From Demequinaceae bacterium (GTDB lineage Bacteria; Actinomycetota; Actinomycetes; Actinomycetales; Demequinaceae), in NCBI GenBank assembly GCA_965250005.1, contig OZ252279.1, positions 810,001 to 842,000 on the forward strand: a stretch of DNA of 32,000 bases. Reading direction: 5' to 3'. The notes beneath the pieces are model-generated. The model did not search any database and was not told where the DNA came from. It saw only the letters and a program-made list of their open reading frames with translations. The position numbers were made by a program, and so were the translations under genes. The number at the start of each line of letters is the position of its first letter. Position 1 is the stretch's first letter. Below, in pieces: positions 1-15,413 of the stretch.

Positions 1-3000
1 GCCGCAGGCCGCGCGATTGCTACGGTGCTCCCTGACGGCGGCCGTACTGAGACCGCGCGCGACGCCCTGGGACGCGAGATCGCCACCACCGACGCCCTGG
101 GCAACACCACCAGCGTGACGTACGACGCTCTCGGCCGCGCGACCATCGTGGTTGACGCCGCCGGTTTCTCCACGACCGCAACCTACGACGCGGGCGGCAA
201 CCGCCTGTCAACGACGGACGCCCGCGGCGGGATCACCGCGTTCGTGTACGACGTGATGAACAGGCTCGTGTCAACCACCAACGCCGAAGGCGAAACCCGC
301 ACACAGTCCTACGACGCAGCGGGCAACGTCACGGATGGGGTCGACGCGCTGGGCGTGGCGACGCACTTCACATATGACGTGCGGAACCTGCTGACCGAGA
401 CAATCGAGAACTACTTGCCGGCCGAGCCGTCGAGCGAGTCGGTCAACGTGACGACGTCGGTGAGCTACGACGCCCGCGGCGACGCGGTGGCGACCGTAGA
501 CCCGCGCGGCAACGCCACGACGTATGTGCGCGACGCGCTTGGCCGCGTGGCGGCAGAAACGGACGCACTCGGCCAGACCAGCGTCGTCGGCTTCGACGCG
601 CTTGGCCGCCCGTCCGTGGTGACCGCACCTGATGGCTCGGTGACGGCGACCACCTACTCGCCCGACGGCTACCCCGTTGAGATCGCGTTCCCCGATCAGA
701 CCGTGACATCCGAATTCGACGCGCTGGGCAACCGAACGTCCATGACCGACGCGCTCGGAACGTCTTCCTGGACGTACGACTGGGCCTCACGGGTCACCGT
801 CGCCGTGGACGCGCTAGGCCAGAAGAACACGAACCAATACGACCTCGCAGGCAACCAAACCCGCGTGACATATGATGACGGCCGCTCGCTGCTGCGCACG
901 TTCGATGCACGCAACCTAGCCGTCACGCAGGCTGATGCTGACGACATCACATCCTTTGATTACGATCAGGCCGGTGCGCTGGTAGGTATTTCGCGCCCGT
1001 CGGGTGTGGAGACCGCCATCGACCGCGACCTACTAGGCCGGGTGACGGCGATTGTTCACACCGGTGAAGGCGTCGTGGGCAACACGCTTCCTAGTGGTGA
1101 GGTGAATCCGTCGTCGATGGCTCCGGGTAATGCGTATGGGCATTGCAAGGACAACGGGAATGGCCACCCGAACCAGCAGCCTGCGGGTTGTTCGACGCAA
1201 GCTCTGACGTTCGAGTACGAGTACGACGCGCGTGGTCTGGTGGATGAGCGGGAGCTGTCCACGGATGAGGCGACCACGCTCACGGATTACACGCATGATG
1301 CGCTTGGGCGTCTGACGGAGTCTGTCACCGGTGACTATGTGGCCACGTATGGGTGGGATGCGGCGTCGAACTTGGTGTTTGAGTCGGTGTCTGAGGATCT
1401 GTCGACGAACAAGAAGGGTGATGGGTACACGGTCACCTGGACCGTCAACGCGATCAACCAGCTCACGCAGTCGGTGATGGATCCGTCGGCGATGCCGGCG
1501 AACAAGACGGAAACGACGGCGTTCTCTTATGACGCGCGCGGCAACCGCACGCAGGCGTTGACGACCACGACGTCGGGCAACAAGACGCACACGGTCAGCG
1601 ACATCCAGTACTCGTATGACGGTCGCGATTTGGTCAGTTCTGTGACCGGTGGTGACACGGATGTGGCGTATGCGCGTGACGGCGTGGGCCGTGCTCTTGA
1701 GGTGTCCGAGGATGGTGACACCCGCACCCGCCTGTATGACGGGCTAGCGATCGTGCGTGATGGTGACACTCAGCTGACGCGCGGTCCGGGTGGTGCGGTG
1801 TTGTTTGAGGCCACGATGGTGACGTCGGGCAAGGGCAAGAAGGCGACGACCTCGATCCAGACGGTGGATGTGCTGGCGGACCTGCTGGGTTCGGCTGTCA
1901 CGACCGCCACGGATGGCGTGATTTCTGCGGACCTGGCGCTGTTTGGAGACTTTGGTGACCTACTGACAGACACCTCCCTGGACACCGTCACTGGGTTTAC
2001 CGGTCAAGTCGATACGGCAGGGTTGCTCGAGTTTGCGTCTCGGTCCTATGACATTGGTTCTCGGGTGTGGGTCCAGGATGACCGCTACCGGGGCACGGTC
2101 ACCCGTGCGTCGTCCCTGAACCGGTACGCCTACGTGGAGGGTGCCCCGGAAACATATGTGGATGTCCTTGGCTTCTTTAGGGCTGCGGCTGCGTTGCGAG
2201 CACAACAGCTGGCGGTATTGAACGCACAACTCCAGTCTGCCCTGGGTTCTCTAGACAGCCTGTATGGATTCGCGATCCAAAACGGGCAGGGCATGTCAGC
2301 CGATGACATGATGCGCGCCTACAACAATCTGGCTGCGGGTCTGGATCCAGCGGTCAAGGGCGTGCTGGACCCGATCGTCGGCAAGCTCGCGACGGGCGTC
2401 AAGACATTTCATTTGCGACAAGCGATTGCGACGATGAAGCAGAAGTTGGCTGAAAATGCCTATGAGAAGGAAAAGGCGCGGGCCGTGGCGGAGTTCCGGG
2501 CCCAAATGGATCTCCAAATCGAAGCACTGTATGCGCAGGCGCCCGGCGGTAACCCCAACACGGTGCACGAAGATAGGGGCTTCGTGGGCAATCGGTTGGA
2601 AGCCCTCAAAGGTCATGTGGGTGCCGCAAAAGACATGGTCGTGGACCTGGCGGTGACTGCGATCGACTTCAACATCATCATGCTGAACCCGGAACTGGCC
2701 GTCCTTACGGGCAGCCTGGACCGCTCGAACCAGCAAATCGACGCGTTCCAGGCTGGGATCGAAGAGAACGGTTGGGGCGACACGCTCAACATGACCCTCA
2801 ACCCGGTCTATCACTTGATCAACGGGAGCGTTTCGACCCTCGATTCGTTCAACACTGGCGACTTCCACGGTGTGGGCGAGGGTGTGTTCCAGATGCAAAT
2901 GGCTTTCGCGGAAACCGCGCTCGTCGTGGTGCCAGGCGCAGGATTGATCGTCGCTGGAGGTGTCAAGGTCGCTGCGCTTGCGGGCCGCGCCACCAACTCG

Positions 3001-3495
3001 CTGACAACCCTCACCACCCGAATCGCCGCTACCGCCCGCGCCTCAGGCCTCGCAGCAGACGCCGGCGCCATCCAACTCCCCGGACGCGCCGCATCAGCCG
3101 CTGATGCTGCGCTAACTGAAGCCGTCACGGCCAAGGCAGTCGCGGGTGCCGAAGTCGCGGTCGTCGACACGGCCGCAGCAAGTCGGCCCGCCGCGCTCGT
3201 AACTGAGACCTACGCTCCAAAGCCACTCAAGCCGAGCGAGGCCGTCGCGCGTTGGGACGAGTTCTTGGGGGACGGCCCAACGACGAACATTCATCCGAGG
3301 ACTGGTGTTCCAGATCCGAACCGTATTGTGTCTGCGGACGGGCTAAGAAGCATCCGTTTTGGTGAGCATGAAATGGGTAGCTCTCCCACGAAGTTTCATT
3401 TCCACGAGGAAACGTGGAGATTCGATGCGGCTACCAACACGTGGCAAGTCGATAATGTAGTGGTTCGAGTTCCCTTCCCGAGAGGCTCCTGGTAA
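1..3495 (+). CDS. RHS/YD-repeat polymorphic toxin, 3' portion (5' end lies off-window), with a long variable C-terminal toxin region
   Basis: Frame 1 is open from nt 1, so the M at nt 25 is internal. Dozens of YD-type repeats are present (YDALGR, YDAGGN, YDAAGN, YDARGD, YDLAGN, YDQAGA, YDARGL, YDARGN). The core-end-like motif NRYAYVEGAPETYVDVLGFF is encoded at 2119-2178. A 439-aa non-repeat tail follows. Stop is TAA 3493-3495. Confidence 0.9.
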   Translation, partial: AAGRAIATVLPDGGRTETARDALGREIATTDALGNTTSVTYDALGRATIVVDAAGFSTTATYDAGGNRLSTTDARGGITAFVYDVMNRLVSTTNAEGETRTQSYDAAGNVTDGVDALGVATHFTYDVRNLLTETIENYLPAEPSSESVNVTTSVSYDARGDAVATVDPRGNATTYVRDALGRVAAETDALGQTSVVGFDALGRPSVVTAPDGSVTATTYSPDGYPVEIAFPDQTVTSEFDALGNRTSMTDALGTSSWTYDWASRVTVAVDALGQKNTNQYDLAGNQTRVTYDDGRSLLRTFDARNLAVTQADADDITSFDYDQAGALVGISRPSGVETAIDRDLLGRVTAIVHTGEGVVGNTLPSGEVNPSSMAPGNAYGHCKDNGNGHPNQQPAGCSTQALTFEYEYDARGLVDERELSTDEATTLTDYTHDALGRLTESVTGDYVATYGWDAASNLVFESVSEDLSTNKKGDGYTVTWTVNAINQLTQSVMDPSAMPANKTETTAFSYDARGNRTQALTTTTSGNKTHTVSDIQYSYDGRDLVSSVTGGDTDVAYARDGVGRALEVSEDGDTRTRLYDGLAIVRDGDTQLTRGPGGAVLFEATMVTSGKGKKATTSIQTVDVLADLLGSAVTTATDGVISADLALFGDFGDLLTDTSLDTVTGFTGQVDTAGLLEFASRSYDIGSRVWVQDDRYRGTVTRASSLNRYAYVEGAPETYVDVLGFFRAAAALRAQQLAVLNAQLQSALGSLDSLYGFAIQNGQGMSADDMMRAYNNLAAGLDPAVKGVLDPIVGKLATGVKTFHLRQAIATMKQKLAENAYEKEKARAVAEFRAQMDLQIEALYAQAPGGNPNTVHEDRGFVGNRLEALKGHVGAAKDMVVDLAVTAIDFNIIMLNPELAVLTGSLDRSNQQIDAFQAGIEENGWGDTLNMTLNPVYHLINGSVSTLDSFNTGDFHGVGEGVFQMQMAFAETALVVVPGAGLIVAGGVKVAALAGRATNSLTTLTTRIAATARASGLAADAGAIQLPGRAASAADAALTEAVTAKAVAGAEVAVVDTAAASRPAALVTETYAPKPLKPSEAVARWDEFLGDGPTTNIHPRTGVPDPNRIVSADGLRSIRFGEHEMGSSPTKFHFHEETWRFDAATNTWQVDNVVVRVPFPRGSW

Positions 3496-3875
3496 TGAAG
3501 GTTGAATTGCAGCGCGAAGCCCCCAGTGACGGCTCGAGGATCCGGATTGCTAACGACGCTGTTGCCGGTGGCGCGCGCTGGAAAGGCGCCGGAACAGCTG
3601 ACACAATCGTTGACATAGAACTCGAAATACCGGGCGTGATCCAGTGGGCTGCAATTGTCGTGGACGCCGGGCCTTCGCACCTCGAAAACCCGAGCGAAGG
3701 GGAATTGCGAATCGTTGGTGTTGCGAGTGATTTGGGCCCAGATGGCTTGCTGATTATGACGGTTCCAGGCGGCGTAATCCTTGTTGAGACATCGGGAGCG
3801 GCACCCAGTGGAATCATTGGAAGAATCATTGGGATAACCGCGCATGACGCGCGCGTGTACTCGACTGGTGTGTGA
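3495..3875 (+). CDS. Candidate cognate immunity protein for the RHS C-terminal toxin (126 aa, no family recognised)
   Basis: ATG 3495-3497 shares its A with the RHS stop TAA (TAATG), which is a translational-coupling geometry. It is on the same strand, immediately 3' of the toxin tip. The sequence has strand-like alternating hydrophobic patterns (TIVDIELEIPGVIQWAAIVVDAG, GLLIMTVPGGVILVETSG). Two long antisense ORFs overlap it, so the strand choice rests on context rather than proof. Confidence 0.6.
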   Translation: MKVELQREAPSDGSRIRIANDAVAGGARWKGAGTADTIVDIELEIPGVIQWAAIVVDAGPSHLENPSEGELRIVGVASDLGPDGLLIMTVPGGVILVETSGAAPSGIIGRIIGITAHDARVYSTGV

Positions 3876-4045
3876 CTCTCCAGATTGGCGACGCGGCCTT
3901 GGGCAATGCACTCCCAGCGATCGAACGCAGCGGTCCTCGATGGCGCCGGGAGGCAACGCCTCGTCCTCGAGGAGTCTTTTGCGCGGCTGTGGGCAATGTG
4001 GCGCTGCCGTTGCTATGGCTGACAGAAGCGGAGGTTTGAGCCAGG

Positions 4046-4390
4046 TTGCCCGAGATTATGAAGTTCATTTCAGCGTTCATGGGTTATCTCTGGCGTGACG
4101 CGGACTTCCAACTCGGCGAATCGGCGGTTTCGACCGTCAACGGTGGCAACGCACATTTGGTAGTCGAGTCGCCCGATCTTCGAATGCGTTTTGTGCTCGA
4201 TCGGTCTCAAATGCTGCTCGAGTTCCAGCCGCGCCTGGATCGTTCGTCGGAAACTTGGTTCGATGTCGATCTGGTTCATCGTGTGATCGATGGGCCTCGC
4301 GACGGTCCCAACCTGTTGGACGAGTACTACGCCAGCTTTGTCGGAAGCAATCTTGACGCGATCAGGGCGCTCTTCGCGCGGGACGCTTAG
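4046..4390 (+). CDS. Hypothetical small protein (114 aa), possibly an orphan or second immunity protein
   Basis: The ORF has protein-like composition (MKFISAFMGYLWRDADFQLGES...LLDEYYASFVGSNLDAIRALFARDA). GGAGG at 4030-4034 lies 11 nt before TTG 4046. An alternative ATG is at 4058. The ORF lies in the lower-GC patch downstream of the toxin/immunity pair. Confidence 0.5.
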   Translation: MPEIMKFISAFMGYLWRDADFQLGESAVSTVNGGNAHLVVESPDLRMRFVLDRSQMLLEFQPRLDRSSETWFDVDLVHRVIDGPRDGPNLLDEYYASFVGSNLDAIRALFARDA

Positions 4391-6819
4391 TCAACCTCGC
4401 GAGTCGCTCTGCGCGCGGCAGGCAGCGCACGCGCCAAGGAACTCTTCGGGTCGGAGTAACGCTGCGATATGGCATGCAGCCTTGCGAGCGAATTTCGACA
4501 AAATGGGGCGTCTCCCGTCAGGGGCCGGTGTAGGCCCGATAGGTTGACCATCGTGGATGACGCACCAATGACGCGGCATCAGGTCCCTCGCGGAAGCAGG
4601 GCTGATGGCGAGTCAAATCGCGAGTTGTTGTTGGTGAAGAACGTCTCTCGAATGCGGTTGACCTATCAGGTGCGCCCACTAACGTTTCGCGCAACGCAGG
4701 AGCAGAAGCGGCTGAAGCCGGACCTTGCGCTGGCAACCGCAGTTGGAGACTTCGAAGACCACTGGTTCCTCGAAATCGATCTAGCAACGGAGTCGATTCC
4801 CGCCGTCATCCGCAAGTGCGCCGTCTACCAGTCATACAAGGCTTCCGGCCTCGAGCAGGCCCTGCTCGGGCTGTTTCCGGCCGTTGTGTGGCTCGTCGCG
4901 GACCAACACCGCCGTGAGCGCCTGAAGGCCGCCATCGGGGCGGACAAGCGCCTAGACGGGCGCGTATTTCGGGTCGTCGAACCAACTACGATGCTGCGCC
5001 TCGCAGGCCTGCCCGATGACACGAATCACGGCAATAGGGGTGGCGAAATTAGGTGACGACAAACGTCTGGACTCGTCGGGCCAAGAGAGTTATCTTCAAG
5101 AGGCTCCATGTCCCAATTGCGACGATTTGGCGAGCCCATCGGTCGCCCTGGGGTGGAAGGAGGAAGTCATGGAAACACCCATAGAGCAACAGGCACGGCC
5201 TCTCGCCGTGACCTACCTGCGTGTCTCGACACGCGAGCAAGCCGAACGCGATGGCGATCCGGAGGGCTATTCGATTCCCGCCCAACGAGAAGCGAACCAG
5301 CGCAAGGCCGAAGCGATGGGCGTCGACATTGTCGGTGAGTTTGTGGATCGCGGAGAATCGGCACGCTCCGCCGACCGACCCGAACTCAAGCGAATGCTTC
5401 ACTTCGTAGGCGAAAACCCCGTCGACTACTGCATCGTCCACAAGGTCGATCGGCTCGCTCGTAACCGGGCCGATGACGTTGAAATCAATATGGCGCTGCG
5501 CGCCGCAGGCGTGCAACTAGTCTCTGCCACCGAAAACATCGACGAAACACCATCAGGCACGCTGCTGCACGGCATCATGAGTTCCATCGCTGAGTTCTAC
5601 TCCCGCAACCTCGCCGCCGAAGTCTCTAAGGGCATGTCCCAGAAGGCCAAAGCAGGCGGCACGGTCACCCGTGCGCCACTGGGCTACCGCAACGTCCACT
5701 CGACTGACGACCAAGGCCGCGAAACCAGACCCGTCGAAATCGACCAGGAACGTGCACCGCTCGTGGCGTGGGCATTCGAACGCTACGCCGAAGGCGACAT
5801 CACACTCAACGAACTCACCGACCAGATGAACGCTCGCGGTCTCACCACCGCGCCCACGGCCACCCGTGCCTCTAAGCCGATCCTGGTCACCCAGTTGCAG
5901 AAGATCCTCAAGAACCCCTACTACAAGGGCGTCGTCGTCTACCGTGGTGCGACCTACCCGGGCAGGCACGAACCACTGGTCAGCGCGGCCCTGTGGGAGA
6001 TAGTTCAAAGCGCACTCGCCACACGGCAGAACGGTGAAAAGGTCCGACGCCACCACCACTACCTCAAGAGTTCCATCTTCTGCGGCTCCTGTAAGAGCAG
6101 GCTCATCGTCCAGCACTCCACCAACCGGCACGGCAACACCTACGAATACTTCGTCTGCCTCGGACGCCACCAGAAACGCACCAACTGCCAGATGTCCGCA
6201 GTATCGATCAACCAAGTCGAAATGCACGTCGTTGACTACTACAAGTCACTCGCCCTGCCACCGGAACTGCGCGAGACGCTCCAAACCGCGCTAACCGAGG
6301 AACTCGAACAATTCACCTCTGAATCAAAGGTGGAGAAGCGAGAACTGGAGCGTCAGCAACGCACTCTGGAAGACAAGCGCAAGAAACTGTTAGAAGCGCA
6401 CTACGCGTCCGCGATCCCGCTCGACCTATTCAAATCCGAGCAAGCGAGCATCGCCCGCACCATGGCCACCATAGGCGAGCGGCTCGAGTCGTTCGACGCC
6501 ACCGCGACAGAGCTCGCAGACTACCTGGATGCCGCTCTCTCGCTTGCACAGGACTGCTACGAGGCCTACCGCCGCGGCACCCCCGGACAGCGACGGATGA
6601 TCAACCAGGCGATGTTCGAGCGGCTCTACATCCACGACTCCGCTGACGCTGACGGCGTACTCGCCGAGCCATTCAACGCACTACTCGACGCCGAAACGCT
6701 CGCTATCGCGAGCACCCACGACTCCGCGAAGCCCGCATTAGAGAATCGAAAAACCCGGCTGTCCCGTGACGGAGAGAACCGGGTTCATCGACTTGGTCAG
6801 GGTTCTAAAGAACCCGTCA
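4391..6819. mobile_element. Recombination/replication module of an integrated element or its remnant, abutting the 3' end of tRNA-Ala. The left boundary is undetermined and the element may include the RHS cassette.
   Basis: A serine recombinase and a replication-relaxation remnant sit directly against the tRNA 3' end, flanked by a polymorphic-toxin locus on the other side. No flanking direct repeat could be identified inside the window. Confidence 0.4.
4568..5056 (+). CDS. Replication-relaxation family protein, apparently N-terminally truncated (possible pseudogene)
   Basis: The C-terminal half matches the family layout I recall: KPDLALA...HWFLEIDLATESIPAVIRKCAVYQSY...FPAVVWLVADQHRRERL. The N-terminal winged-helix part expected in full-length members is absent. 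Sequence upstream of ATG 4568 in the same ORF (from 4469) is not protein-like. The start is uncertain. Confidence 0.5.
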   Translation: MTRHQVPRGSRADGESNRELLLVKNVSRMRLTYQVRPLTFRATQEQKRLKPDLALATAVGDFEDHWFLEIDLATESIPAVIRKCAVYQSYKASGLEQALLGLFPAVVWLVADQHRRERLKAAIGADKRLDGRVFRVVEPTTMLRLAGLPDDTNHGNRGGEIR

Positions 6820-6992
6820 TGGTGGAGCTGAGGGGACTCGAACCCCTGACCCCCTGCATGCCATGCAGGTGCGCTACCAACTGCGCCACAGCCCCGCGAC
6901 CTTGCGGTCACTTGCCCCGGAGGGCGAGTGCCATAGTACCGAACCGCAGCGGGAACCGCCTAATCACTTCCCGCGTTGTGCCGCTCAAGTGA
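5169..6992 (+). CDS. Large serine recombinase (resolvase/invertase N-terminal domain, recombinase domain, zinc ribbon, coiled coil)
   Basis: AAGGAGG (5157-5163) ends 5 nt before ATG 5169. Catalytic region: AVTYLRVSTREQ...VHKVDRLARN...IAEFYSRNL. Zinc ribbon: IFCGSCKSRL...YEYFVCLGRHQKRTNC. A coiled-coil segment follows (EKRELERQQRTLEDKRKKLLEAHY). There is no stop until TGA 6990-6992, so the last ~58 codons are antisense to tRNA-Ala and to the end of the neighbouring gene. The functional C-terminus is uncertain. Confidence 0.85.
   Translation: METPIEQQARPLAVTYLRVSTREQAERDGDPEGYSIPAQREANQRKAEAMGVDIVGEFVDRGESARSADRPELKRMLHFVGENPVDYCIVHKVDRLARNRADDVEINMALRAAGVQLVSATENIDETPSGTLLHGIMSSIAEFYSRNLAAEVSKGMSQKAKAGGTVTRAPLGYRNVHSTDDQGRETRPVEIDQERAPLVAWAFERYAEGDITLNELTDQMNARGLTTAPTATRASKPILVTQLQKILKNPYYKGVVVYRGATYPGRHEPLVSAALWEIVQSALATRQNGEKVRRHHHYLKSSIFCGSCKSRLIVQHSTNRHGNTYEYFVCLGRHQKRTNCQMSAVSINQVEMHVVDYYKSLALPPELRETLQTALTEELEQFTSESKVEKRELERQQRTLEDKRKKLLEAHYASAIPLDLFKSEQASIARTMATIGERLESFDATATELADYLDAALSLAQDCYEAYRRGTPGQRRMINQAMFERLYIHDSADADGVLAEPFNALLDAETLAIASTHDSAKPALENRKTRLSRDGENRVHRLGQGSKEPVMVELRGLEPLTPCMPCRCATNCATAPRPCGHLPRRASAIVPNRSGNRLITSRVVPLK
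6820..6895 (-). tRNA. tRNA-Ala (anticodon GGC), CCA encoded
   Basis: Hand-folded 76-nt cloverleaf from the reverse complement. Acceptor GGGGCUG/CAGCUCC with the G3:U70 alanine identity pair. D arm GCGC-AGUUGGUA-GCGC. Anticodon arm CCUGC-AUGGCAU-GCAGG. Variable loop GGGUC. T arm AGGGG-UUCGAGU-CCCCU. Ends in ACCA. Confidence 0.95.
6933..6938 (-). promoter_or_regulatory. Possible -10 element (TACTAT on the minus strand) for tRNA-Ala
   Basis: A TAnnnT-type hexamer lies 37 nt upstream of the mature tRNA 5' end. No convincing -35 element was found. Confidence 0.2.
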
Positions 6993-7565
6993 CCACCGTC
7001 CCCCGAGCCGCTGAACGAGCTCGCTCCAACGGGTATTGTCGAGGTTCGCGATTGCGCGCCGCTCCGGAGCAATACCAAGCAGCGCGTGGATTCCCACCCG
7101 GATTGCACTCCCGTGACTCACGACAACGAGGCCGCCGGGGGCCGACGCGGCGTGCTCCTCTATCGCCGCCGCGACGCGCCGCGCGAGCGGGCCGTTCCCC
7201 TCAATACCTTCCACCTGGGCCTCGCCGTGCAGGCTCCACCGTTCGACGGCCTCAGGGTATCTCTCCTTACGCTCGCTCAGCGTGAGGCCCTCCCACGGCC
7301 CGTACTCACGCTCGGCCAATCGTGGGTCGAGCGTCACATCGGCGGCGCCCAGGGCGTCGGCGATGGTCCGTGCGGTGTCGGCAGCTCTCGCCAAGGGCGA
7401 CGCGAATACAACCGACTGGACAGGCACGATGGCCTTGAGTTCGGCCGCGACGCGCTCCGCCTGGTCTCGGCCAGCGGCATTGAGCGGGATGTCCGTGGCA
7501 CCCTGGAGTCGGCCACTGGCGTTCCAGTCAGTCTGACCGTGACGGACCAGGTACAGGTACGTCAC
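6960..7565 (-). CDS. Histidine phosphatase family protein (phosphoglycerate-mutase-like)
   Basis: N-terminal LVRHGQTDWN (RHG catalytic motif) and a later VSHG motif. GTG start 7565-7563 overlaps the rsfS stop (GTGA). This is the usual actinobacterial position downstream of nadD-rsfS. Confidence 0.85.
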   Translation of the reverse strand: MTYLYLVRHGQTDWNASGRLQGATDIPLNAAGRDQAERVAAELKAIVPVQSVVFASPLARAADTARTIADALGAADVTLDPRLAEREYGPWEGLTLSERKERYPEAVERWSLHGEAQVEGIEGNGPLARRVAAAIEEHAASAPGGLVVVSHGSAIRVGIHALLGIAPERRAIANLDNTRWSELVQRLGGRWSLERHNAGSD

Positions 7566-7924
7566 GAGGCTTCAGTAAGCGGCACTGTGGGGCAGTCTTT
7601 CCATAGCCTCTCGAGCTCGTAGTACGCGCGATCCTCCTGATGCATCACGTGAACCACGAGGTCATTGAAATCAAGAAGCGCCCAGCGACCGCGGCGGACG
7701 CCTTCGCGCCGGAGTGCCTTCGAGCCGCTTTCGGCCAAGTCATCTCCGATGCGCTCGGCGATCGCCGTTACCTGCCGCTCGCTGGACCCCGACGCGATGA
7801 GAAAGACGTCCGCGAGAGCGAGCTGACCGCTCACGTCTAGCGCGATCAGGTTCTCAGCCTTCACATCTGCCGCTGAGCGGGCGGCGGCCACCGTCAACGC
7901 GACCGCGCGCTCGGATGCGGTCAA
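7562..7924 (-). CDS. rsfS: Ribosomal silencing factor RsfS
   Basis: ENLIALDVSGQLALADVFLIASGSSERQVTAIAERI...GRWALLDFNDLVVHVMHQEDRAYYELERLW. I prefer TTG start 7924-7922, which gives (M)TASERAV, close to the mycobacterial N-terminus I recall. It overlaps the upstream stop as TTGA. The track's longer ORF to 8002 has a Cys/Arg-rich, non-protein-like head. Confidence 0.85.
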   Translation of the reverse strand: MTASERAVALTVAAARSAADVKAENLIALDVSGQLALADVFLIASGSSERQVTAIAERIGDDLAESGSKALRREGVRRGRWALLDFNDLVVHVMHQEDRAYYELERLWKDCPTVPLTEAS

Positions 7925-9069
7925 CCGCCTCCCCCCGCAACATTCCAAACGATCAAGCCCAGCACAAAGGCGGCAGCGGCAAGGATGACGATCTGTGGCC
8001 AACCGAAGTGGCTCGCGCCCCCTGCAGGGTGTACTTCCACAACCGGACGCGGAATCGCGCCCGTCCCCGGGGCGCCAACGGCACGCATCCCTCCGGTCGC
8101 TGGACCAGAGTTGAACGCAGGGGGAGACACGGCGCCAGGAGCACCTGCGCCGGGGACCATCGCTCCCGTGGACTGACCCCCTTGAGCCGAAAGCGTCCCA
8201 GGTGTGGCCAGCTGGGGCGCGGAGCCCCCCGGCGCGAACGGGCTAGCTGCCACTTGAGCGACCGGCACAGTCGCAGGCTTTGGTTGCGGCGCCCCTGGGG
8301 GCGCCACCCCATCGGGCGGCGCGGGAGGCGCCCCGGGTACCCCGGGTGGTTCCTGCATCGGGCTCCCGAAAGCCGGGGTGACCTCAGAGAGAGCGGGAAC
8401 CCCCACAGGGGCCTGCTGTCCCCCATCGGCCATGAAAGCGGCCTCCGCCTCGTAGCGATTGCCTCCCGTAGCAGCGGCGTTGACCGCATCTAGCGCGGCG
8501 GCGGCAATACCGGCCACTTCGCCCCCACTTGCGGCCTGGGCGGCTTGCTGCTCTTCAATCTCCGCCTCGGCCGCGAGAGCCTTGTGCTGCAGGGAACCAG
8601 GTGGGAACATCGCTGCTCGTTCCTTCGCTGTGGGCCGCTTAGGTGCGACAGGCGCCTGGGCCTCGGGCTGGGCCGGAACGTACCCCGCGTCATCGCCACC
8701 GACAGGAGACCTCTCAGTGACCATGCCGCCCATCTCGCCGGTAGCGAGCTTCGCGTCTTCCTGCGCGGAAGCGGCCTTCTCACGTGCGATTTGCTCTTGT
8801 TCCACGATGCGCTCCGGCGTCATCGCCGGAGTCCTGCCCGTGTGCCGCATTTCTTCTTCAGCTGTCCACGTCTCCACAGGGTTCTCGAGTCGCTCGAGCC
8901 TGCGGCGTTCGCGGCGAGATAGCCCTGCCCCGTCGGCTTCCGCCTCTACCGCGGCCGAATCTGCCGTCGGCAAAGCCTCGGTGGTGCCCTCTGCGGACTC
9001 CACTGAAGCTGCCCTCTGCTCCGTCTCACGCCGTTCCCGGCGCGAAACCGGGTGTGACGACTCAGTCAT
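7921..9069 (-). CDS. Low-complexity Pro/Ala/Gly-rich protein with a single C-terminal transmembrane helix (hypothetical)
   Basis: ATG 9069 is preceded by GGAGGAG and overlaps the nadD stop by 8 nt. The stop overlaps the rsfS start. The N-terminus is charged, with a duplicated SRRERR motif. A long P/A/G tract follows. The C-terminal helix is WPQIVILAAAAFVLGLIVWNVAG. Confidence 0.7.
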   Translation of the reverse strand: MTESSHPVSRRERRETEQRAASVESAEGTTEALPTADSAAVEAEADGAGLSRRERRRLERLENPVETWTAEEEMRHTGRTPAMTPERIVEQEQIAREKAASAQEDAKLATGEMGGMVTERSPVGGDDAGYVPAQPEAQAPVAPKRPTAKERAAMFPPGSLQHKALAAEAEIEEQQAAQAASGGEVAGIAAAALDAVNAAATGGNRYEAEAAFMADGGQQAPVGVPALSEVTPAFGSPMQEPPGVPGAPPAPPDGVAPPGAPQPKPATVPVAQVAASPFAPGGSAPQLATPGTLSAQGGQSTGAMVPGAGAPGAVSPPAFNSGPATGGMRAVGAPGTGAIPRPVVEVHPAGGASHFGWPQIVILAAAAFVLGLIVWNVAGGGG

Positions 9070-9658
9070 CGGCTCCTCCACGATACAACTTGTGCTCCTG
9101 TATATAATCGGCAACAGCGCCGGGGACTAAATACCGGACCGGCTGGCCGCTCTTGACCCGCGCCCGGACATCCGTCGAGGATACCGGCAAAGCAGGTACC
9201 TCAACCAACGTAGCGCCCGGTGCCCCGGGGGGTAACGAATAGCCGGGCCGAGTCACTCCCACGAATGTCGCCAACGTACGCAAACGCTCCGATTCCTTCC
9301 ACTCGTCGAGACGCTGCAGAGCGTCGACTCCCGCGACAAAATGGATATCGGCACCCGGATACTCCGCGGCGATATCCGTCAGCGTGTCCACCGCGAACGT
9401 GGGCGCGCCGCGCACCACGTCAACGTCCGAGATCTCCAACCGCGGGTCATCTGCAACCGCGAGTCGGGCCATCGCGAGCCTGTGCACAGCCGGAGTAACT
9501 TCTTCCGCGCTCTTGAAGGGTTGCACGTCAGCCGGCACCAGCAGCATTCGGTCGAGCGCGAGCACGGAGTGGACCTCGCTCGCTGCGACCAAGTGACCGA
9601 TGTGTATGGGATCGAACGTGCCGCCGAAAACGCCGATACGGAGGCTTGGTTGCTTCAC
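9062..9658 (-). CDS. nadD: Nicotinate-nucleotide adenylyltransferase
   Basis: IGVFGGTFDPIHIGHL (the HxGH nucleotidyltransferase motif) and a C-terminal ISSTDVR-like VSSTDVRARV. The start codon is GTG. Confidence 0.9.
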   Translation of the reverse strand: MKQPSLRIGVFGGTFDPIHIGHLVAASEVHSVLALDRMLLVPADVQPFKSAEEVTPAVHRLAMARLAVADDPRLEISDVDVVRGAPTFAVDTLTDIAAEYPGADIHFVAGVDALQRLDEWKESERLRTLATFVGVTRPGYSLPPGAPGATLVEVPALPVSSTDVRARVKSGQPVRYLVPGAVADYIQEHKLYRGGADD

Positions 9659-9660
9659 GG

Positions 9661-9816
9661 CTAGTGGCGCGTGCCGACGCTCCGGAACGCGTACACCACA
9701 AGCAGCAGTCCGATAAGGGTGCCGAGCGCGAGCAGACCGTAGGCCTCCGCCGGGATGGGTAGTTCTGCGACGGCGTGTTCGGCGTCGGGTGCGAGTTCAG
9801 TCAGCAGGCGAGTCAC
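9661..9816 (-). CDS. Small (51 aa) single-pass membrane protein, below the ORF-track length cut-off
   Basis: AAAGGAGAAG lies 5 nt before GTG 9816. Hand translation: VTRLLTELAPDAEHAVAELPIPAEAYGLLALGTLIGLLLVVYAFRSVGTRH*. The third codon position is mostly G/C. The stop lies 2 nt before the nadD start. The ORF fills the proA-nadD gap on the same strand. Confidence 0.55.
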   Translation of the reverse strand: MTRLLTELAPDAEHAVAELPIPAEAYGLLALGTLIGLLLVVYAFRSVGTRH

Positions 9817-9870
9817 GGCTTCTCCTTTGTGCGTTGGGCCAATTGTTCCACGTTCGCGGCTATCGCGCTG

Positions 9871-11157
9871 TCACGCGCGAATGTGTCCATCCCCGTACAC
9901 AACCCACTTGGTAGTTGTGAGTTCCGCGAGCCCCATGGGTCCGCGGGCGTGAAGCTTTTGCGTCGAGATGCCGATTTCCGCGCCTAGCCCGAATTCTGCG
10001 CCGTCGGTGAAACGGGTGGACGCGTTCACCATGACAGCCGCGGTGTCCAGTTGGCTCACAAACTTCTCGGCCTCATTGATGTCGTCGGTGACGATCGCCT
10101 CGGTGTGCCCCGTCGTATAGCGCTGTATGTGCTCAATCGCCTCGTCGATGCTGGCGACCACCTTGACGGCCAGGTCGAGCGACAGGTACTCGGTTCCCCA
10201 ATCCGCGTCCGTGGCCTCGACCGTGTCAATGTCCGCTGGCGCGAGCGCACGCGTCTGTGTGTCGGCGTGAAGCGTGACGTCGGCGCCGGACAGCGCAGTC
10301 AGGAGTGCAGGCATCACCCGCTCCGCGGCGTCTTTGTGGACCAGGAGCGTCTCGGCCGCGTTGCATACACCCACGCGTTGAGCCTTGGAGTTGACGGCGA
10401 TGTTGACCGCACGCTCGGTCGGTGCGGACGCATCGACGTACACGTGACAGTTGCCCTCGCCAGTCTCAATCGCAGGCACTGTGGACTCCATCACAACAGT
10501 CTGAATCAGGTCGTGGCCGCCGCGGGGAACAAGGACGTCCACAAGGCCGCGCGCCGTCATCATTACTTTGGCGCCTTCGCGTCCGTAGGCGTCGATGCTC
10601 TGAACCGCGTCGCGGGGAAGGCCGACGCTCTCGAGCGCCTCCTGCAGCACATCAACAATGACCTCGTTCGAGGAGGCCGCAGCAGAGCCGCCACGAAGCA
10701 CGGCGGCGTTGCCCGACTTGAGCGCGAGCCCAGCAGCGTCCACAGTCACGTTGGGACGCGCCTCATAGATCATGCCGACCACGCCCATGGGCACCGACTT
10801 CTGAATGAGTCGCATACCGTTCGGCAACGTGGAACCGCGGCGAACTTCGCCTACGGGATCCGGAAGCGCGGCGAGATCGCGAAGGGCGTCGGCGATCGTA
10901 ACAATTCTGTCGTGCGTGAGTTGCAGCCGATCAAGGAGTCCAGGAGACATGTCATTGTCGCGCCCACGCCGCACGTCGAGAGCGTTGGCGGCGACGATGC
11001 GCTCAGACTGGCCGACGAGGCTGTCCGCCATTGCATGGAGCGCTAGGTCCTTGGTTGCGCGCGTCGCCGTCGCGAGCGCGCGCGAGGCAACCTTGGCACG
11101 AGAGCACGCCTCAAGGACGGCTTTGCGTGTATCTGTGGCCGCGACGGTGTCAGTCAT
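9871..11157 (-). CDS. proA: Glutamate-5-semialdehyde dehydrogenase
   Basis: VLVPRGGHDLIQ...ETGEGNCHVYVD...STRFTDGAEFGLGAEIGISTQKLHARGPMG. ATG 11157 is chosen for a typical N-terminal length. An upstream GTG at 11211 is possible. Confidence 0.9.
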   Translation of the reverse strand: MTDTVAATDTRKAVLEACSRAKVASRALATATRATKDLALHAMADSLVGQSERIVAANALDVRRGRDNDMSPGLLDRLQLTHDRIVTIADALRDLAALPDPVGEVRRGSTLPNGMRLIQKSVPMGVVGMIYEARPNVTVDAAGLALKSGNAAVLRGGSAAASSNEVIVDVLQEALESVGLPRDAVQSIDAYGREGAKVMMTARGLVDVLVPRGGHDLIQTVVMESTVPAIETGEGNCHVYVDASAPTERAVNIAVNSKAQRVGVCNAAETLLVHKDAAERVMPALLTALSGADVTLHADTQTRALAPADIDTVEATDADWGTEYLSLDLAVKVVASIDEAIEHIQRYTTGHTEAIVTDDINEAEKFVSQLDTAAVMVNASTRFTDGAEFGLGAEIGISTQKLHARGPMGLAELTTTKWVVYGDGHIRA

Positions 11158-11261
11158 GGTTCCAGTGTAAGCGCGGGCGGGGGCCGGTAGATGTGTACAC
11201 GGGATCGTCACCCTGCCCGAACGCCTAGTTGAGGCAGCATCAACAGCGCGGCGCAGTGAAT

Positions 11262-12386
11262 TCAGTGTTTGGCGACAACGACAAGGTCATCAATGTGGAC
11301 CAACTCGCGGGCGAACTTCTCGCCCAGCTGCTCGCGCAATTCCTTGGTGCTGAGGCCAAGCATCACCGGGATCTGGTGCGCTGCAAACTTCGCTAGCCCG
11401 CGGGCGAGCAATGTGCCATCGGGCCCAACGAGGTCGACAGGGGCCTCGGCTTCAAACTCGCCGCGCACCGCAGTCACTCCTGCCGACAACAGCGAAGCCT
11501 TCCCGCCCACGACAGCACGGGCGGCACCATCGTCTAGAACGAGCTGCCCGGTGGTCTTGGCTGCGTGCGCGAGCCATTGGAGGCGCGCAGTCGCACGCTT
11601 GCCTGTCGCAGCAAACAAGGTCCCGGCCTCGGCACCCACCACGGCCTGTGCCGCCTTCGCCGCACTCGTGAGCACCACCGTCACGCCAGAGGCGGTCGCG
11701 ATGGCGGCGGCCTCGAGCTTGGTGACCATGCCCCCCGTCCCAAGAGCGTGACCGCGATGAGAGATGTCGATGTCTTCGAGGTCGGCCGCCGTCTGAACGT
11801 GTTTGATTAGCCTCGCGCTCGCGTCGCTCGGTGACGCAGAGTACAGGCCGTCAACATCGGTTAGCAGTATCAGCGCGTCCGCTGCGACCACCGTGGCAAC
11901 CAGGGCGGCGAGCCGATCGTTGTCGCCAAACCTGATCTCGTCGGTGGCGACCGTGTCGTTTTCGTTGACGATTGGCACCACGCCGAGCTCGAGCAGGCGG
12001 TTGAGCGCGCGCTCGGCGTTGCCGTAGTGGCTGCGGCGCATCAAGTCGTCTGCAGACAGCAGCACTTGGCCGGCGCGAATCCCATGCTTGTCAAAGGCGC
12101 GTGCGTACGCGGCGATGAGCATTCCCTGCCCGACCGAGGCCGTAGCCTGCGCCGAGGCGAGATCCTGCGGGCGCTGATCCAGTCCCAACGGCTTGAGTCC
12201 CGCGGCTATTGCGCCGGACGTTACCAGGATCACCTCTTGACCCCGGCCGCGCATGTGGGCGACGACATCAACCAGTGCGGCCAGGTTTTCTTCTGCGAGC
12301 GAGCCGTCGGCGGCGGTGAGGGAAGAGGATCCGACCTTGACGACAACACGACGCGCCTCGGCAACGGCCGTGCGCGTGTCGCTCAT
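11262..12386 (-). CDS. proB: Glutamate 5-kinase (with C-terminal PUA-like region)
   Basis: [10 protein letters not shown]...VTSGAIAAG...[22 protein letters not shown]. The ATG overlaps the obg stop (ATGA). Confidence 0.92.
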
Positions 12387-13948
12387 GAGTCCTCCTGCTG
12401 GTCCGCCTCTACTGGCGATTCGTCGCCGTCAGCGTCGTCCGGTGATACCCAGTGTCCCGCGTCTCGTTCCGTTGACAACTCATCACGCGCCGCAGCCTTG
12501 GCATCCATGCGTTCCAGGTGGCCGCGTCTGCGCTCCTCGCGCGTCTCCCGGCCGGCACGCTCGTGGCTCTCAAGCCTGAGATCCGTGCCGCGCTGTCCCA
12601 ACAACTCCGCGCCCGTGGACATGGTGGGCTCCCAATCGAAGACCACGCCGCCAACGCGCTCTCCTATCACGACTTCCGCGCCGGGCGTCGCCCCTGCCCG
12701 GAACAGGGCGTCCTCGACTCCCAGGCGCGCCAACTTGTCGGCGAGGAACCCGACGGCCTCGTCGTTGTTGAACGCGGTCTGCTTAACCCATCGTTCTGGC
12801 CTAGCGCCGCGTACCTGATAGAAATCCAATTCGCCGTCACGCACGTGCGTGACCGTAAACCCGGCATCGTCCATCGCGGCGGGCCGCAACACCATTGGTG
12901 CCGCCTCGAGGGCGGGAGCTGCCGCCCGAGCCTCGGCAATGAGCGTGGCGAGCGAGAACCCGAGTTCCTTGAGGCCCTCGTGGCTAGCGGCGCTTACTTC
13001 GAAAATGGGGATGCCCAGCGCCTCGAGATCTGGGCGGACGATCGCGGCGAGTTCGCGCCCGTCCGGTACGTCAATCTTGTTGAGGATGACGACCTGCGGC
13101 CGCTCGGCCAAGGGCATGGCGTTGATGTCGGGATCACTTTGGTACGCCGCGAGTTCAGCCTGAATCACCTTGAGGTCGCGAACAGGGTCCCGGTCGTTCT
13201 CGAGCGTCGCCGTGTCCAGCACGTGCGCAATGATGCTGCACCGTTCGATGTGCCGCAGGAAGTCGTGCCCCAGGCCCTTGCCCTCCGAAGCTCCGGCGAT
13301 CAGTCCGGGTACGTCGGCCATAGTGAAGCGCGCGCCGCCCGCGGCGACTACGCCGAGGTTGGGAACCAAGGTGGTGAAGGGATAGTCTGCGATCTTTGGG
13401 CGCACTTTGGACATCGCCGCGATGAGTGAAGACTTGCCCGCGCTGGGATAGCCCACGAGCGCGACGTCGGCGATCGACTTGAGCTCGAGGACAATGGACG
13501 CCTCGTGACCTGGCTCGCCAAGCAGCGCGAATCCGGGCGCCTTGCGCTTGCTTGACGCAAGCGCAGCATTACCCATTCCCCCACGTCCGCCTGCGGCGAC
13601 CACGTACTCGGCGCCGTCGCCAACCAAATCAGCAAGCACATCGCCCTCGATATTCTTGACGATCGTGCCGTTGGGGACGGGGAGGCGCAGGTCCTTGGCT
13701 TTGGAGCCGTGCCTGTTATCGCCCTCGCCCTGCCCGCCGTTCTCCGCCTTGCGATGCGGCGCGTGGTGGAAATCGAGCAGAGTGGTGATCTGTGGGTCGA
13801 CGTAGATCAGGACAGAGCCACCCTGGCCGCCGGTGCCGCCATCGGGGCCTCCGAGAGGCTTGAACTTTTCGCGGTGGACGGATGCGACGCCGTGGCCACC
13901 CGAGCCGCCAGTCGCGTGCATGGTCACGCGGTCAATGAACGAGGTCAT
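12383..13948 (-). CDS. obg: GTPase Obg/CgtA
   Basis: N-terminal [44 protein letters not shown] domain: [21 protein letters not shown]. Acidic C-terminal tail. GGGAGGG lies before ATG 13948. Confidence 0.95.
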
Positions 13949-14106
13949 CGCACCCTCCCTTCAGTTCCGAGTTCGGCAAACGCGAACGATGCGGCGCGTC
14001 GTCGTGCCATCATCCCAGGCATGGCGGGGACCGGATGACGGCCATAGACTCGCGCCAAGACCCCGAAGAGGTAGCCATGGCAAAGTAAGCCAAGAAGAAG
14101 CCGTCC

Positions 14107-14655
14107 GTGCCGACCGTCAGTAGCGCGCCCAAGGAGAGGAACTGGCTGCCGATCATCGGCATTCCCATTGGGATTCTCCTGCTGATAGTTGTCGTGCTGC
14201 TGGCCGTCCTTGTCACCAAGGACGACGTGCCGCTGACTGAGCCCTCTCCGTCCATCACTCCCGATCCCGCCGTTACGGAGGATGCCGCGCCGAGCGAGAC
14301 GCCGTCGCCAGACCCGGAACCCGAGCCAGAACCAGACCAAGAGCCAGATCCGGGCGCCACATTCGTCGTCTTTCAGGTCTCTGGCGCTCCAGCGATCTGC
14401 GGGAGCGAGAGCGATATTCAGGGAGTCTTCTTCAACTACGCGACGCAGAACGCGGTCGCGGCGTGGATTGGCGTCGATACCAGCACCGGAAACGCGAAGG
14501 GGGAGCCATATGACTCGATCGACCCGGCGACCGGAGACATCGACATGAACTTCGGCTGTAGCGAGGAATCGCACACCTACACGATTACTCTTGAAAACAG
14601 CGACGGCGTACTCACGCACAAGACCACAACGATTACGCGAGTGCTCGCGCCATAG
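14107..14655 (+). CDS. Membrane-anchored hypothetical protein: N-terminal TM helix, Pro/Glu/Asp-rich linker, ~100-aa extracytoplasmic domain with 2 Cys
   Basis: TM helix WLPIIGIPIGILLLIVVVLLAVLV, then the linker PSPDPEPEPEPDQEPDP, then a beta-rich domain. GTG 14107 is the first start after an in-frame TAA. The antisense ORF 13945..14619 is Arg-rich and looks like a shadow ORF. Confidence 0.65.
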   Translation: MPTVSSAPKERNWLPIIGIPIGILLLIVVVLLAVLVTKDDVPLTEPSPSITPDPAVTEDAAPSETPSPDPEPEPEPDQEPDPGATFVVFQVSGAPAICGSESDIQGVFFNYATQNAVAAWIGVDTSTGNAKGEPYDSIDPATGDIDMNFGCSEESHTYTITLENSDGVLTHKTTTITRVLAP

Positions 14656-14672
14656 GCGCAGGCCCGGTGCGG

Positions 14673-14927
14673 CTAAGAAGCTGCGACGATGTCGACGACC
14701 TTGCGGCCGCGACGGCGACCAAACTGGACAGCGCCAGCCTGGAGTGCGAAAAGCGTGTCATCCTTGCCACGGCCAACGCCGAGGCCGGGGTGGAAGTGGG
14801 TTCCGCGCTGACGGACGATAATCTCGCCTGCGTTGACGACCTGGCCGCCAAAGCGTTTGACGCCCAGGTACTGAGCGTTGGAGTCGCGACCGTTGCGCGA
14901 GGAACTTGCGCCCTTTTTGTGTGCCAT
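14673..14927 (-). CDS. rpmA: 50S ribosomal protein L27
   Basis: [29 protein letters not shown]...GTHFHPG. Confidence 0.97.
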
Positions 14928-14937
14928 TGCGGTTCCC

Positions 14938-15246
14938 TTACTTGATCCCAGTTACCTTCAGGCGCGTGAGATCCTGTCGGTGTCCGATGCGCCTGCGGTA
15001 GCCAGTCTTGTTCTTGTACTTGAGGATGTCGATTTTGGGGCCGCGCTCGTCGCGCACGACCTTTGCGGTCACCTTGATCTTGGCGAGCTCTGCTGACTTG
15101 GTCGTGACCTTGTCGCCGTCCACGAGCAAAAGGGCAGGAAGCTCAACAGTGGCGCCCTCGCTTGCCTGGAGGCGGTCGACAACGACGACGTCACCAACGG
15201 CGACCTTCTCTTGACGGCCGCCGGCCTTAACAATCGCGTACACCAT
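14938..15246 (-). CDS. rplU: 50S ribosomal protein L21
   Basis: [21 protein letters not shown]...[24 protein letters not shown] 15246 lies after AAAGGAA. The upstream part of the track ORF is not protein-like. Confidence 0.95.
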
Positions 15247-15377
15247 GATGCTGTTCCTTTTACGTCTACGTGTGTCCCCGTCGCGGCGCAATCCGGTGTG
15301 GATCGCTGCTCTGAGGGGGTGCGGCGCATTCACGCCGACTGCCAAAGATACCTTCCCTGCTACCTGCGGGTCAAACT

Positions 15378-15406
15378 CCGCACGGCGCGCGATGTGCGCG
15401 GTGCGG
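15378..15406 (-). terminator. GC-rich hairpin just after the rne stop; possible I-shaped terminator or processing structure
   Basis: CCGCAC-(GG bulge)-CGCGC-GATGT-GCGCG-GTGCGG gives 11 paired positions. It starts 8 nt downstream of the rne TAA. There is no U-tract. Confidence 0.35.
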
Positions 15407-15413
15407 CACATCA

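Follow-up and report, generated by a model that had tools for sequence, protein, structure and literature searches.

The 3' end of a Demequinaceae RHS polymorphic-toxin gene: a clade-specific core-end motif without Pro, conserved helical pre-toxin modules and a predicted BECR-like toxin from a widespread unnamed family

A stretch of 32,000 nucleotides from a Demequinaceae bacterium (assembly GCA_965250005.1, contig OZ252279.1, positions 810,001 to 842,000 of the forward strand; hereafter the window) was analyzed, and at its left end we found the 3' portion of an RHS polymorphic-toxin gene of actinobacterial type, followed by an immunity gene. The RHS toxin identity, proposed earlier by a model that saw only the letters and the open reading frames (the sequence-only reading), is supported by the YD repeats, the core domain, an exchangeable C-terminal toxin domain (hereafter the tip) and the immunity gene. 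An RHS toxin with its immunity gene is a well-known and ordinary kind of system. What we consider modestly novel in this one is a clade-specific core-end motif, presumably for self-cleavage, that lacks a Pro and is followed by conserved helical pre-toxin modules, together with a widespread, strongly conserved and unnamed toxin-immunity family whose toxin is predicted to be BECR-like. The parts of the system are the following:

1..1950, + strand: YD/RHS repeat shell, partial (PF05593, TIGR01643, open frame)
1951..2175, + strand: RHS-associated core, an aspartyl-protease plug (TIGR03696 on amino acids (aa) 651-724)
2176..2598, + strand: post-core helical module 1, which opens with the clade-wide helix FRAAAALRAQQLAVLNAQ (matches to P0046-P0052; conserved R2, A3, A6, Q10 and A17)
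2572..2985, + strand: post-core module 2 (GFVGN...ENGWGDTLNMTLNPVYH...GDFHGVGEG...), which ends in a hydrophobic Pro-Gly segment (common to P0039, P0001, P0040-P0045 and the main RHS of L005)
2986..3204, + strand: Ala/Thr-rich linker (26 Ala and 10 Thr in 73 aa)
3205..3492, + strand: C-terminal toxin domain, member of an unnamed and widespread family (homologues in at least 231 clusters, AlphaFold2 model)
3495..3875, + strand: cognate immunity gene, 126 aa (family hidden Markov model (HMM), E 2.7e-11; alignments A3 and A7)

The RHS reading frame lies on the + strand in frame 1 and is open from nucleotide (nt) 1 to a TAA stop codon at 3493-3495, in such a way that 1164 aa are encoded inside the window and the 5' part of the gene continues past its left edge. 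A scan with the Pfam and NCBIfam profiles detected the repeats along 11 stretches with PF05593 (RHS_repeat, E 6.1e-49) and also with TIGR01643 (E 2.9e-42), and the core domain with a TIGR03696 score of 35.1 bits, over a cutoff of 32.5. The upstream Asp of the core sits in the sequence WVQDDRYRG (nt 2068-2094), the motif NRYAYVEG begins at aa 707 (nt 2119), and the core ends with PETYVDVLGF (nt 2146-2175), the presumed self-cleavage motif; its last five residues and the next one, DVLGFF, are aa 721-726 (from nt 2161). The part after DVLGF measures exactly 439 aa. The coordinates that the sequence-only reading had given for DVLGFF, the 439-aa post-core part, the hydrophobic segment and the 91-aa tip all proved right.

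The literal motif PxxxxDPxGL, with Pro after the Asp and a terminal Leu, is not present in the core end of the window; PETYVDVLGF stands there instead and differs from it at these two positions. A Phe in place of the final Leu is also seen beside a canonical DP in P0006 of Parafrankia. In Rhs1 of Photorhabdus, the Asp of the second DPLGL motif (D1338) is catalytic, and the D1338N substitution blocks cleavage (PMC8636562). The core-end motif had been described beforehand as degenerate, a view that did not survive the comparison with relatives. In alignment A5, composed of seven sequences (the window and six RHS core ends bearing the same tip), the window keeps all eight invariant residues (R, D, N, Y, Y, P, D and G), both Asp included, and the variant itself is conserved throughout a clade.

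This clade was delimited by an exhaustive HMMER search and a metagenome scan, and its signature is WVQDDRYRG...NRYAYVEGAPExxVD[V/A/H/E/R]xGF, always followed by [F/Y]RA[A/R]AA..AQ.LA. The residue after the catalytic Asp can be V, A, H, E, R or T, and positions D4, D5, P27, D32, G35 and F36 of the clade alignment A8 are invariant. In around 30 metagenomic loci of the clade, a residue other than Pro follows the Asp and the FRAxAAxxxQ helix comes next, whereas RHS proteins of other lineages detected in the same scan show DP[F/L/S/T]G[L] with unrelated sequence directly after it. Residues R2, A3, A6, Q10 and A17 after the core are conserved in at least 90% of 29 clade post-core regions. All the core domains of the clade score 35-41 bits for TIGR03696, compared with 94-99 in canonical RHS proteins. 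The free variation after the Asp suggests that a Pro is not needed at this position, and from these alignments we infer that the protease of the window clade is probably intact and the Pro dispensable.

Two arrangements seen at this point of the protein in relatives are worth describing. Locus L032 contains six core-end-plus-tip cassettes in a single 20-kb stretch (six sites from ~2200 to 16400), each with NRYAYVEGSPxSHTDVLGA followed by [F/Y]RAA[A/S]AMAAQ[K/Q]L[S/T]A, and the cassettes diverge from each other ~20 aa past the motif, which means that in this subclade the shared homology extends beyond the presumed cleavage site. In P0043, the N-terminus is an RHS-repeat fragment (WDASSNLVGE..DDPST..GDAY) fused straight into the middle of the post-core helix (AAFQSALDELN), a junction that looks like the product of a recombination or a deletion inside the conserved helix.

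The part between the core and the tip is characteristic of the clade. Its 342 aa found only 15 relatives among 1.84 billion representative proteins, and its modules are restricted to one actinobacterial RHS clade. The 439 aa after the core had been regarded as unusually long; within the clade, complete post-core regions mostly measure 250-490 aa, so the window is typical in this respect. Among carriers of the same tip with a recognizable core-end motif, mainly proteobacterial, the toxin starts at a median of 21 aa after the motif, versus 343 aa in the window, and several same-tip carriers, mostly of actinobacterial type, have spacers of 130-280 aa.

Comparison of relatives shows that this region stays constant while the tips change. 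P0039 is 87% identical over the end of the RHS part and the whole middle region, and then carries a different tip. P0001, with a middle region 55-59% identical and yet another tip, tracks the window as far as ...AVVDTAA and then diverges. The similarity to these two closest relatives ends in or just past the linker, which suggests that the tip was probably exchanged there. P0040 has the same type of middle region in front of an RNase A-like CdiA-CT tip (PF18431, E 3.8e-28). P0041-P0045 and the 2455-aa main RHS of L005 share module 2, with the pattern ENG...NP[V/I]Y...GD[F/W/Y]..[V/A/C]G..., after which a hydrophobic P-G-A segment usually comes. P0046-P0052 have in common with the window only the first 80-140 aa of the middle region, their matches running from residue 1 to about 115-143. 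The wider clade also has tips of the NucA/NucB, EndoU, Tox-REase-9, DddA-like deaminase, Tox-SHH and ADP-ribosyl-cyclase-like types. The same middle region with differing tips points to a constant pre-toxin part located ahead of interchangeable tips, most of them acting in the cytoplasm. A second RHS gene or orphan cassette with the same middle module and another tip (P0001) is probably present elsewhere in this genome.

Module 2 ends in the hydrophobic segment ETALVVVPGAGLIVAGGVKVAALAG (aa 971-995, nt 2911-2985), which is the hydropathy maximum of the post-core part (Kyte-Doolittle 19-residue mean of 1.97) and holds a conserved Pro-Gly and a conserved Lys. Neither Pfam nor NCBIfam gave a match at E<=1 over the last 445 aa beyond noise (Kelch, Prp19), and no profile of the pre-toxin domains PT-TG, PT-HINT or PT-VENN in these databases matched the middle region of the window or those of 10 relatives. 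A profile of the middle region compared with the Protein Data Bank (PDB) sequences returned only noise, and the 445-aa tail used as a single sequence found no meaningful match there. The idea that the hydrophobic segment and module 2 form a diverged PT-TG-like pre-toxin domain was also tried and rejected: hhalign gave a probability of 0.4% against the motif VPxxGExAD...GD...PxxG, and no Pfam PT-TG domain was detected in the carriers of that motif P0004, P0007, P0049 and P0052. The sequence-only reading had seen in the middle region a delivery or translocation module; its constancy ahead of swapped tips agrees with that view. We propose that the middle region may aid the exit of the tip from the shell or its passage across the envelope or membrane of the target.

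The 2455-aa clade RHS of L005 is followed, at positions 3810-9434 of that locus (on the same contig as L013), by an array of small secreted toxins with a common N-terminal region (YDGAxHSxQAH...LLKSVAAN), swapped tips and immunity genes, in which the pairs barnase-like/Barstar (twice), deaminase/Imm10 and Gln-amidase/Imm35 were recognized. This is a different polymorphic toxin series nested in the RHS locus.

The tip itself, KPLKP...GSW, spans aa 1074-1164 (nt 3220-3492) and has 91 aa. Alignments of homologues place the start of the conserved toxin domain about 5 aa earlier, at ETYAPKP (nt 3205), which gives 96 aa, and residues are numbered here from nt 3205. The tip had been described as unclassifiable, rich in His and Glu and devoid of Cys. 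Its lack of Cys is correct, the richness was overstated (4 His and 6 Glu in 91 aa), and the profile scan bears out the first term to the extent that the tip had no Pfam or NCBIfam match at E<=1. Comparison of 18 members of its family with Pfam likewise yielded no toxin family, and no Pfam domain covers the tip in any carrier.

The tip is far from being the isolated novelty that had been supposed. Single-sequence and profile searches found homologues in at least 231 clusters from four phyla, with identities of 53-82%. Homologues that are 56-82% identical to the tip argue against a chance open reading frame. The hosts are the actinobacteria Frankia, Parafrankia, Cellulomonas, Streptomyces and Streptosporangium; Pseudomonas, Pectobacterium, Cronobacter, Buttiauxella, Xenorhabdus, Snodgrassella, Halomonas and Methylomonas; Bacillus thuringiensis and B. 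clarus; and one Acidobacteriota genome. The domain is always C-terminal, and its carriers are RHS proteins with a canonical DPxGL, PT-HINT proteins or short orphan cassettes. The homologue of Pseudomonas reinekei adjoins VgrG and DUF4123 genes and is linked to a type VI secretion system (T6SS). On the 362-kb linear plasmid NZ_CP102515.1 of Streptomyces yangpuensis (L009, 7001-7653), a tip homologue with 69% identity lies where no feature is annotated, and a 122-aa hypothetical gene follows it in the position of an immunity gene.

Fourteen residues are invariant in 33 tip sequences (L21, P31, S43, D45, G46, S49, I50, R51, G53, H55, E56, H65, H67 and E69), and the conserved signature reads S-x-DG, R-S-I-R-x-G-x-HE and H-x-H-E-E-T-W. 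The cluster E-H-E...H-F-H-E-E, noticed from the letters as a catalytic candidate, is a reasonable one given that H55, E56, H65, H67 and E69 belong to this invariant set. Neither Zhang et al. 2012 nor the supplement of Nachmias nor a full-text literature search gave a match to the tip motifs. The base composition of the tip and the immunity gene differs from that of the rest of the gene, with a GC content of 56-57% versus 64% in the RHS repeats, and a GC content at third codon positions that is 0.78 in the repeats but falls to 0.60 for the tip and 0.58 for the immunity gene (3205-3875 compared with 1-2160). These lower values fit a recent horizontal acquisition of the cassette.

An AlphaFold2 model of the tip was built on the family alignment, with a pLDDT of 88.3 and a pTM of 0.76. 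The model shows a helix at residues 10-21 and strands at 40-42, 48-51, 65-74 and 79-88, an order identical to the definition of the BECR fold, which consists of an N-terminal helix followed by a four-strand meander (PMC3482391). A Foldseek search against the PDB produced chain 5T86_A as the sole standout (E 3e-3, probability 0.99), the next hit having an E of 0.17 and the rest a probability of 0.28 at most; the match to the tip model has a TM-score of 0.47, with an rmsd of 6.2 Å. The 5T86 entry is the CdiA-CT toxin of E. coli A0 34/86 from an unpublished contact-dependent inhibition (CDI) complex, described as a BECR-fold protein and as the structure closest to the Salmonella Rhs2 toxin (bioRxiv 10.64898/2026.05.10.723254), and Zhang et al. 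assigned the Salmonella enterica rhs2 toxin to Ntox47 (PMC3482391). A profile of the tip gave no meaningful match to the sequence of any PDB chain, which makes it unlikely that the tip is the same as a toxin with a structure in the PDB copy searched, PT1 and PT7 of Nachmias et al. included if their structures are deposited. Residues D45, R51, H55, E56, H65, H67 and E69, all of them invariant, would suit an active site of the BECR type. The model and these residues indicate that the tip is probably a BECR-like RNase of an undescribed family.

The open reading frame 3495-3875 behaves as the immunity gene of this tip. Its start codon overlaps the stop codon of the RHS gene by 1 nt (TAATG), and it aligns with the genes of 81-129 aa that come immediately after tip homologues in Parafrankia, Cellulomonas, Pseudomonas reinekei and Bacillus thuringiensis and on two metagenomic contigs. 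The HMM constructed from these six genes matched, among the 298 open reading frames of the window, only this one, with the E-value of 2.7e-11 that bears out the earlier assignment as an immunity gene, and a pairwise comparison gave an E of 3e-6. The family is characterized by W29, D[V/I]E[L/F]..., W51 and a C-terminal [Y/F/H]P[T/F][G/E][V/I], it is found downstream of this tip in three phyla, and it has no counterpart in Pfam or NCBIfam. The occurrence of one core and middle region with different tips, together with this HMM match, indicates an exchangeable C-terminal toxin with a cognate immunity gene.

Taken together, we consider it fairly probable that this region is the 3' part of an actinobacterial RHS toxin gene with its immunity gene and that it works in the following way. 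The YD-repeat shell would enclose the C-terminal region, as in the solved RHS and Tc structures, and the divergent but intact aspartyl-protease plug would cut after PETYVDVLGF, as its conserved residues suggest, to free a 439-aa fragment. This fragment would comprise four pieces: the clade helix with helical module 1, module 2 ending in the Pro-Gly hydrophobic segment, the Ala/Thr linker and the 96-aa toxin. The two helical modules would constitute the constant pre-toxin part and may help the tip to leave the shell or to cross the target envelope or membrane. The exchangeable and horizontally acquired tip is predicted to fold, most likely, as an alpha+beta RNase of the BECR type, with an active site presumably formed by R51, H55 and E56 and by H65, H67 and E69, the latter three alternating along strand 3. 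The 126-aa product of the adjacent gene, associated with the tip at the family level, would bind and neutralize it in the producer.

Several data weigh against this explanation. The fold match is modest and depends on one structure that lacks published biochemistry, no profile ties the tip to any Pfam BECR family or to any PDB sequence, and a metal site would be an equally good reading of the His/Glu cluster. The core domain of the window scores 35 bits, compared with 94-99 in canonical RHS proteins, the Pro after the catalytic Asp is absent from its motif, and cleavage is only presumed. The AlphaFold2 model of the middle region is all-helical but poor (pLDDT 49.8), with no homologue of known function. 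The RHS N-terminus lies outside the window, so the secretion route is not readable there.

The nature of the tip is the point at which a competing explanation has most to offer. The main rival, unlikely in our opinion but to be taken seriously, is that the tip acts as a DNase or peptidase, a hydrolase dependent on metal with H55-E56 and H65-x-H67-x-E69 as ligands, instead of as a metal-independent BECR RNase. Three invariant His and two invariant Glu within 15 residues would be appropriate for such a site, no BECR family is linked to the tip by sequence, many tips of the same RHS clade are DNases, and short novel domains of polymorphic toxins have proved to be new DNases (bioRxiv 10.1101/2021.10.19.465003). 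However, the topology is that of a helix and a four-strand meander, the only PDB match is a BECR toxin, BECR clades with two His are well known (PMC3482391), and the tip has no HExxH, HNH or PD-(D/E)xK spacing. The sequence-only reading had gone further and suggested an undescribed effector fold, which would agree with the lack of Pfam, NCBIfam and PDB sequence matches, with motifs that are printed in no paper of the searched library, and with a Foldseek TM-score below 0.5. We judge this quite improbable, given a confident model with the canonical BECR order of secondary structure and a single PDB match, to a BECR CdiA-CT toxin, standing far above the background (0.99 vs 0.28 at most).

The remaining rivals concern the core end and the middle region and leave the nuclease prediction aside. 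In one of them the variant core end, with DV for DP and a weak core score, would no longer self-cleave; the C-terminus would stay attached as in teneurins, which lack the autoprotease site and in which the C-terminal domain lies outside the shell (PMC8765631), and the helical region would serve on the exterior as a stalk or anchor displaying the toxin. The Pro is indeed gone from both DP motifs (QDDRYRG and VDVLGF), the core score of 35 bits is far from the 94-99 of canonical proteins, and conservation runs beyond the putative cleavage site, unlike in canonical RHS. Nevertheless, the clade keeps both Asp, the Gly, the upstream Pro and the N-Y-Y residues without exception, which would be unexpected in a dead protease, the freely varying residue after the Asp suggests that the Pro is simply unneeded, and the tips are nucleases and deaminases that act in the cytoplasm and need release. 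A teneurin-like loss of the autoprotease catalytic residues is not the case here either, as both Asp are kept in the window and invariant in the clade, in such a way that we find this attached form rather unlikely. Still less credible to us is that the middle region is a second, membrane-active toxin of the pore-forming kind instead of a delivery module, even if its all-helical model and its conserved hydrophobic segment (Kyte-Doolittle 1.97) recall helical-hairpin membrane inserters. The module always precedes an enzymatic tip, the hydrophobic segment carries the conserved Pro-Gly and Lys, the gene directly after the window toxin belongs to the immunity family of the tip, and in L005 just one small gene, recurrent with that type of tip, comes after the main RHS, which has modules 1 and 2. 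No second conserved immunity gene was found alongside in the two loci checked, which argues against the middle region being a toxin.

Beyond the cleaved BECR-like RNase with its constant pre-toxin part, a bolder joint proposal can be formulated. The tip would found a new cross-phylum clade of BECR-like nucleases, with a catalytic strand H-x-H-E-E, an immunity family of its own and an unusual conservation (identities of 55-80%) from Bacillus to Pseudomonas to Frankia, and the segment after VDxLGF (the FRAxAAxxxQ helix and modules 1 and 2) would be an undescribed delivery or translocation device of Gram-positive RHS toxins, still attached to the toxin after a Pro-independent self-cleavage. We put it forward tentatively, as a possibility that we consider less likely than not.

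Downstream of the toxin-immunity pair, the following features were identified:

4046-4390, downstream of the immunity gene: 114-aa open reading frame (no Pfam or NCBIfam match, exact sequence absent from the protein collection)
4469-5056, after the toxin-immunity pair: truncated Replic_Relax open reading frame
5016-6992: large serine recombinase open reading frame, whose open frame crosses tRNA-Ala(GGC)
6820-6895, strand opposite to the recombinase frame: tRNA-Ala(GGC)

The 114-aa product could be encoded by an orphan immunity gene. Housekeeping genes appear from position 6960, starting with a histidine phosphatase gene and rsfS, continuing with genes of the cytidylyltransferase, aldehyde-dehydrogenase and amino-acid-kinase families, consistent with nadD, proA and proB, and then obg. 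The Replic_Relax fragment, the recombinase, the tRNA gene and the housekeeping genes place the RHS cassette at the edge of an integrated element, which looks like one inserted at tRNA-Ala(GGC) with the cassette inside it. A search for a terminator downstream of the immunity gene found one weak hairpin, no more than expected by chance (1.7).

The route by which Gram-positive RHS toxins reach their targets is poorly understood. The clade described here offers a concrete candidate for delivery, namely the conserved helical segment between the cleavage motif and the interchangeable nuclease tips, and its alignments suggest that at least one lineage may do without the Pro of DPxGL. No name in Pfam or NCBIfam has been given to the widespread and strongly conserved tip family, so the characterization of one member would annotate hundreds of effector genes along with their immunity partners.

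Several known systems resemble the one in the window. Teneurins are like it in their YD shell and in the long C-terminal region that comes behind a diverged core, but the autoprotease site is wholly absent from them (PMC8765631), whereas the window keeps both Asp and its clade carries tips of active type with immunity genes. The CdiA-CT toxin of 5T86 and the Salmonella Rhs2 toxin (Ntox47), both BECR proteins, are like the tip small alpha+beta domains with an N-terminal helix, a four-strand sheet and a dedicated immunity protein, and BECR RNases have conserved acidic, His and Arg residues as the tip does (bioRxiv 10.64898/2026.05.10.723254); they differ from it in having no detectable sequence similarity (no match to PF15540 or to any other Ntox family), a TM-score of only 0.47 and a different signature. 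A parallel in architecture is found in the T6SS Rhs effectors of solved structure, Rhs1/Tre23 of Photorhabdus laumondii and RhsA of Pseudomonas protegens, and in the TcC subunits of Tc toxins. Like the window, they have a YD shell with a C-terminal aspartyl-protease plug whose catalytic Asp belongs to the last D-x-x-G motif, and an exchangeable toxin at the C-terminus next to its immunity gene. Their motif is PxxxxDPxGL and the sequence is variable directly after it, whereas the window has PxxxxDVxGF with a core score barely over the cutoff, and its clade is conserved for a further 17 to ~340 aa. The part released in the window would amount to 439 aa, its host belongs to the actinobacteria, and any N-terminal trafficking domain lies outside the window; the tip family of the window, for its part, is also borne by canonical proteobacterial Rhs proteins encoded beside VgrG and DUF4123.

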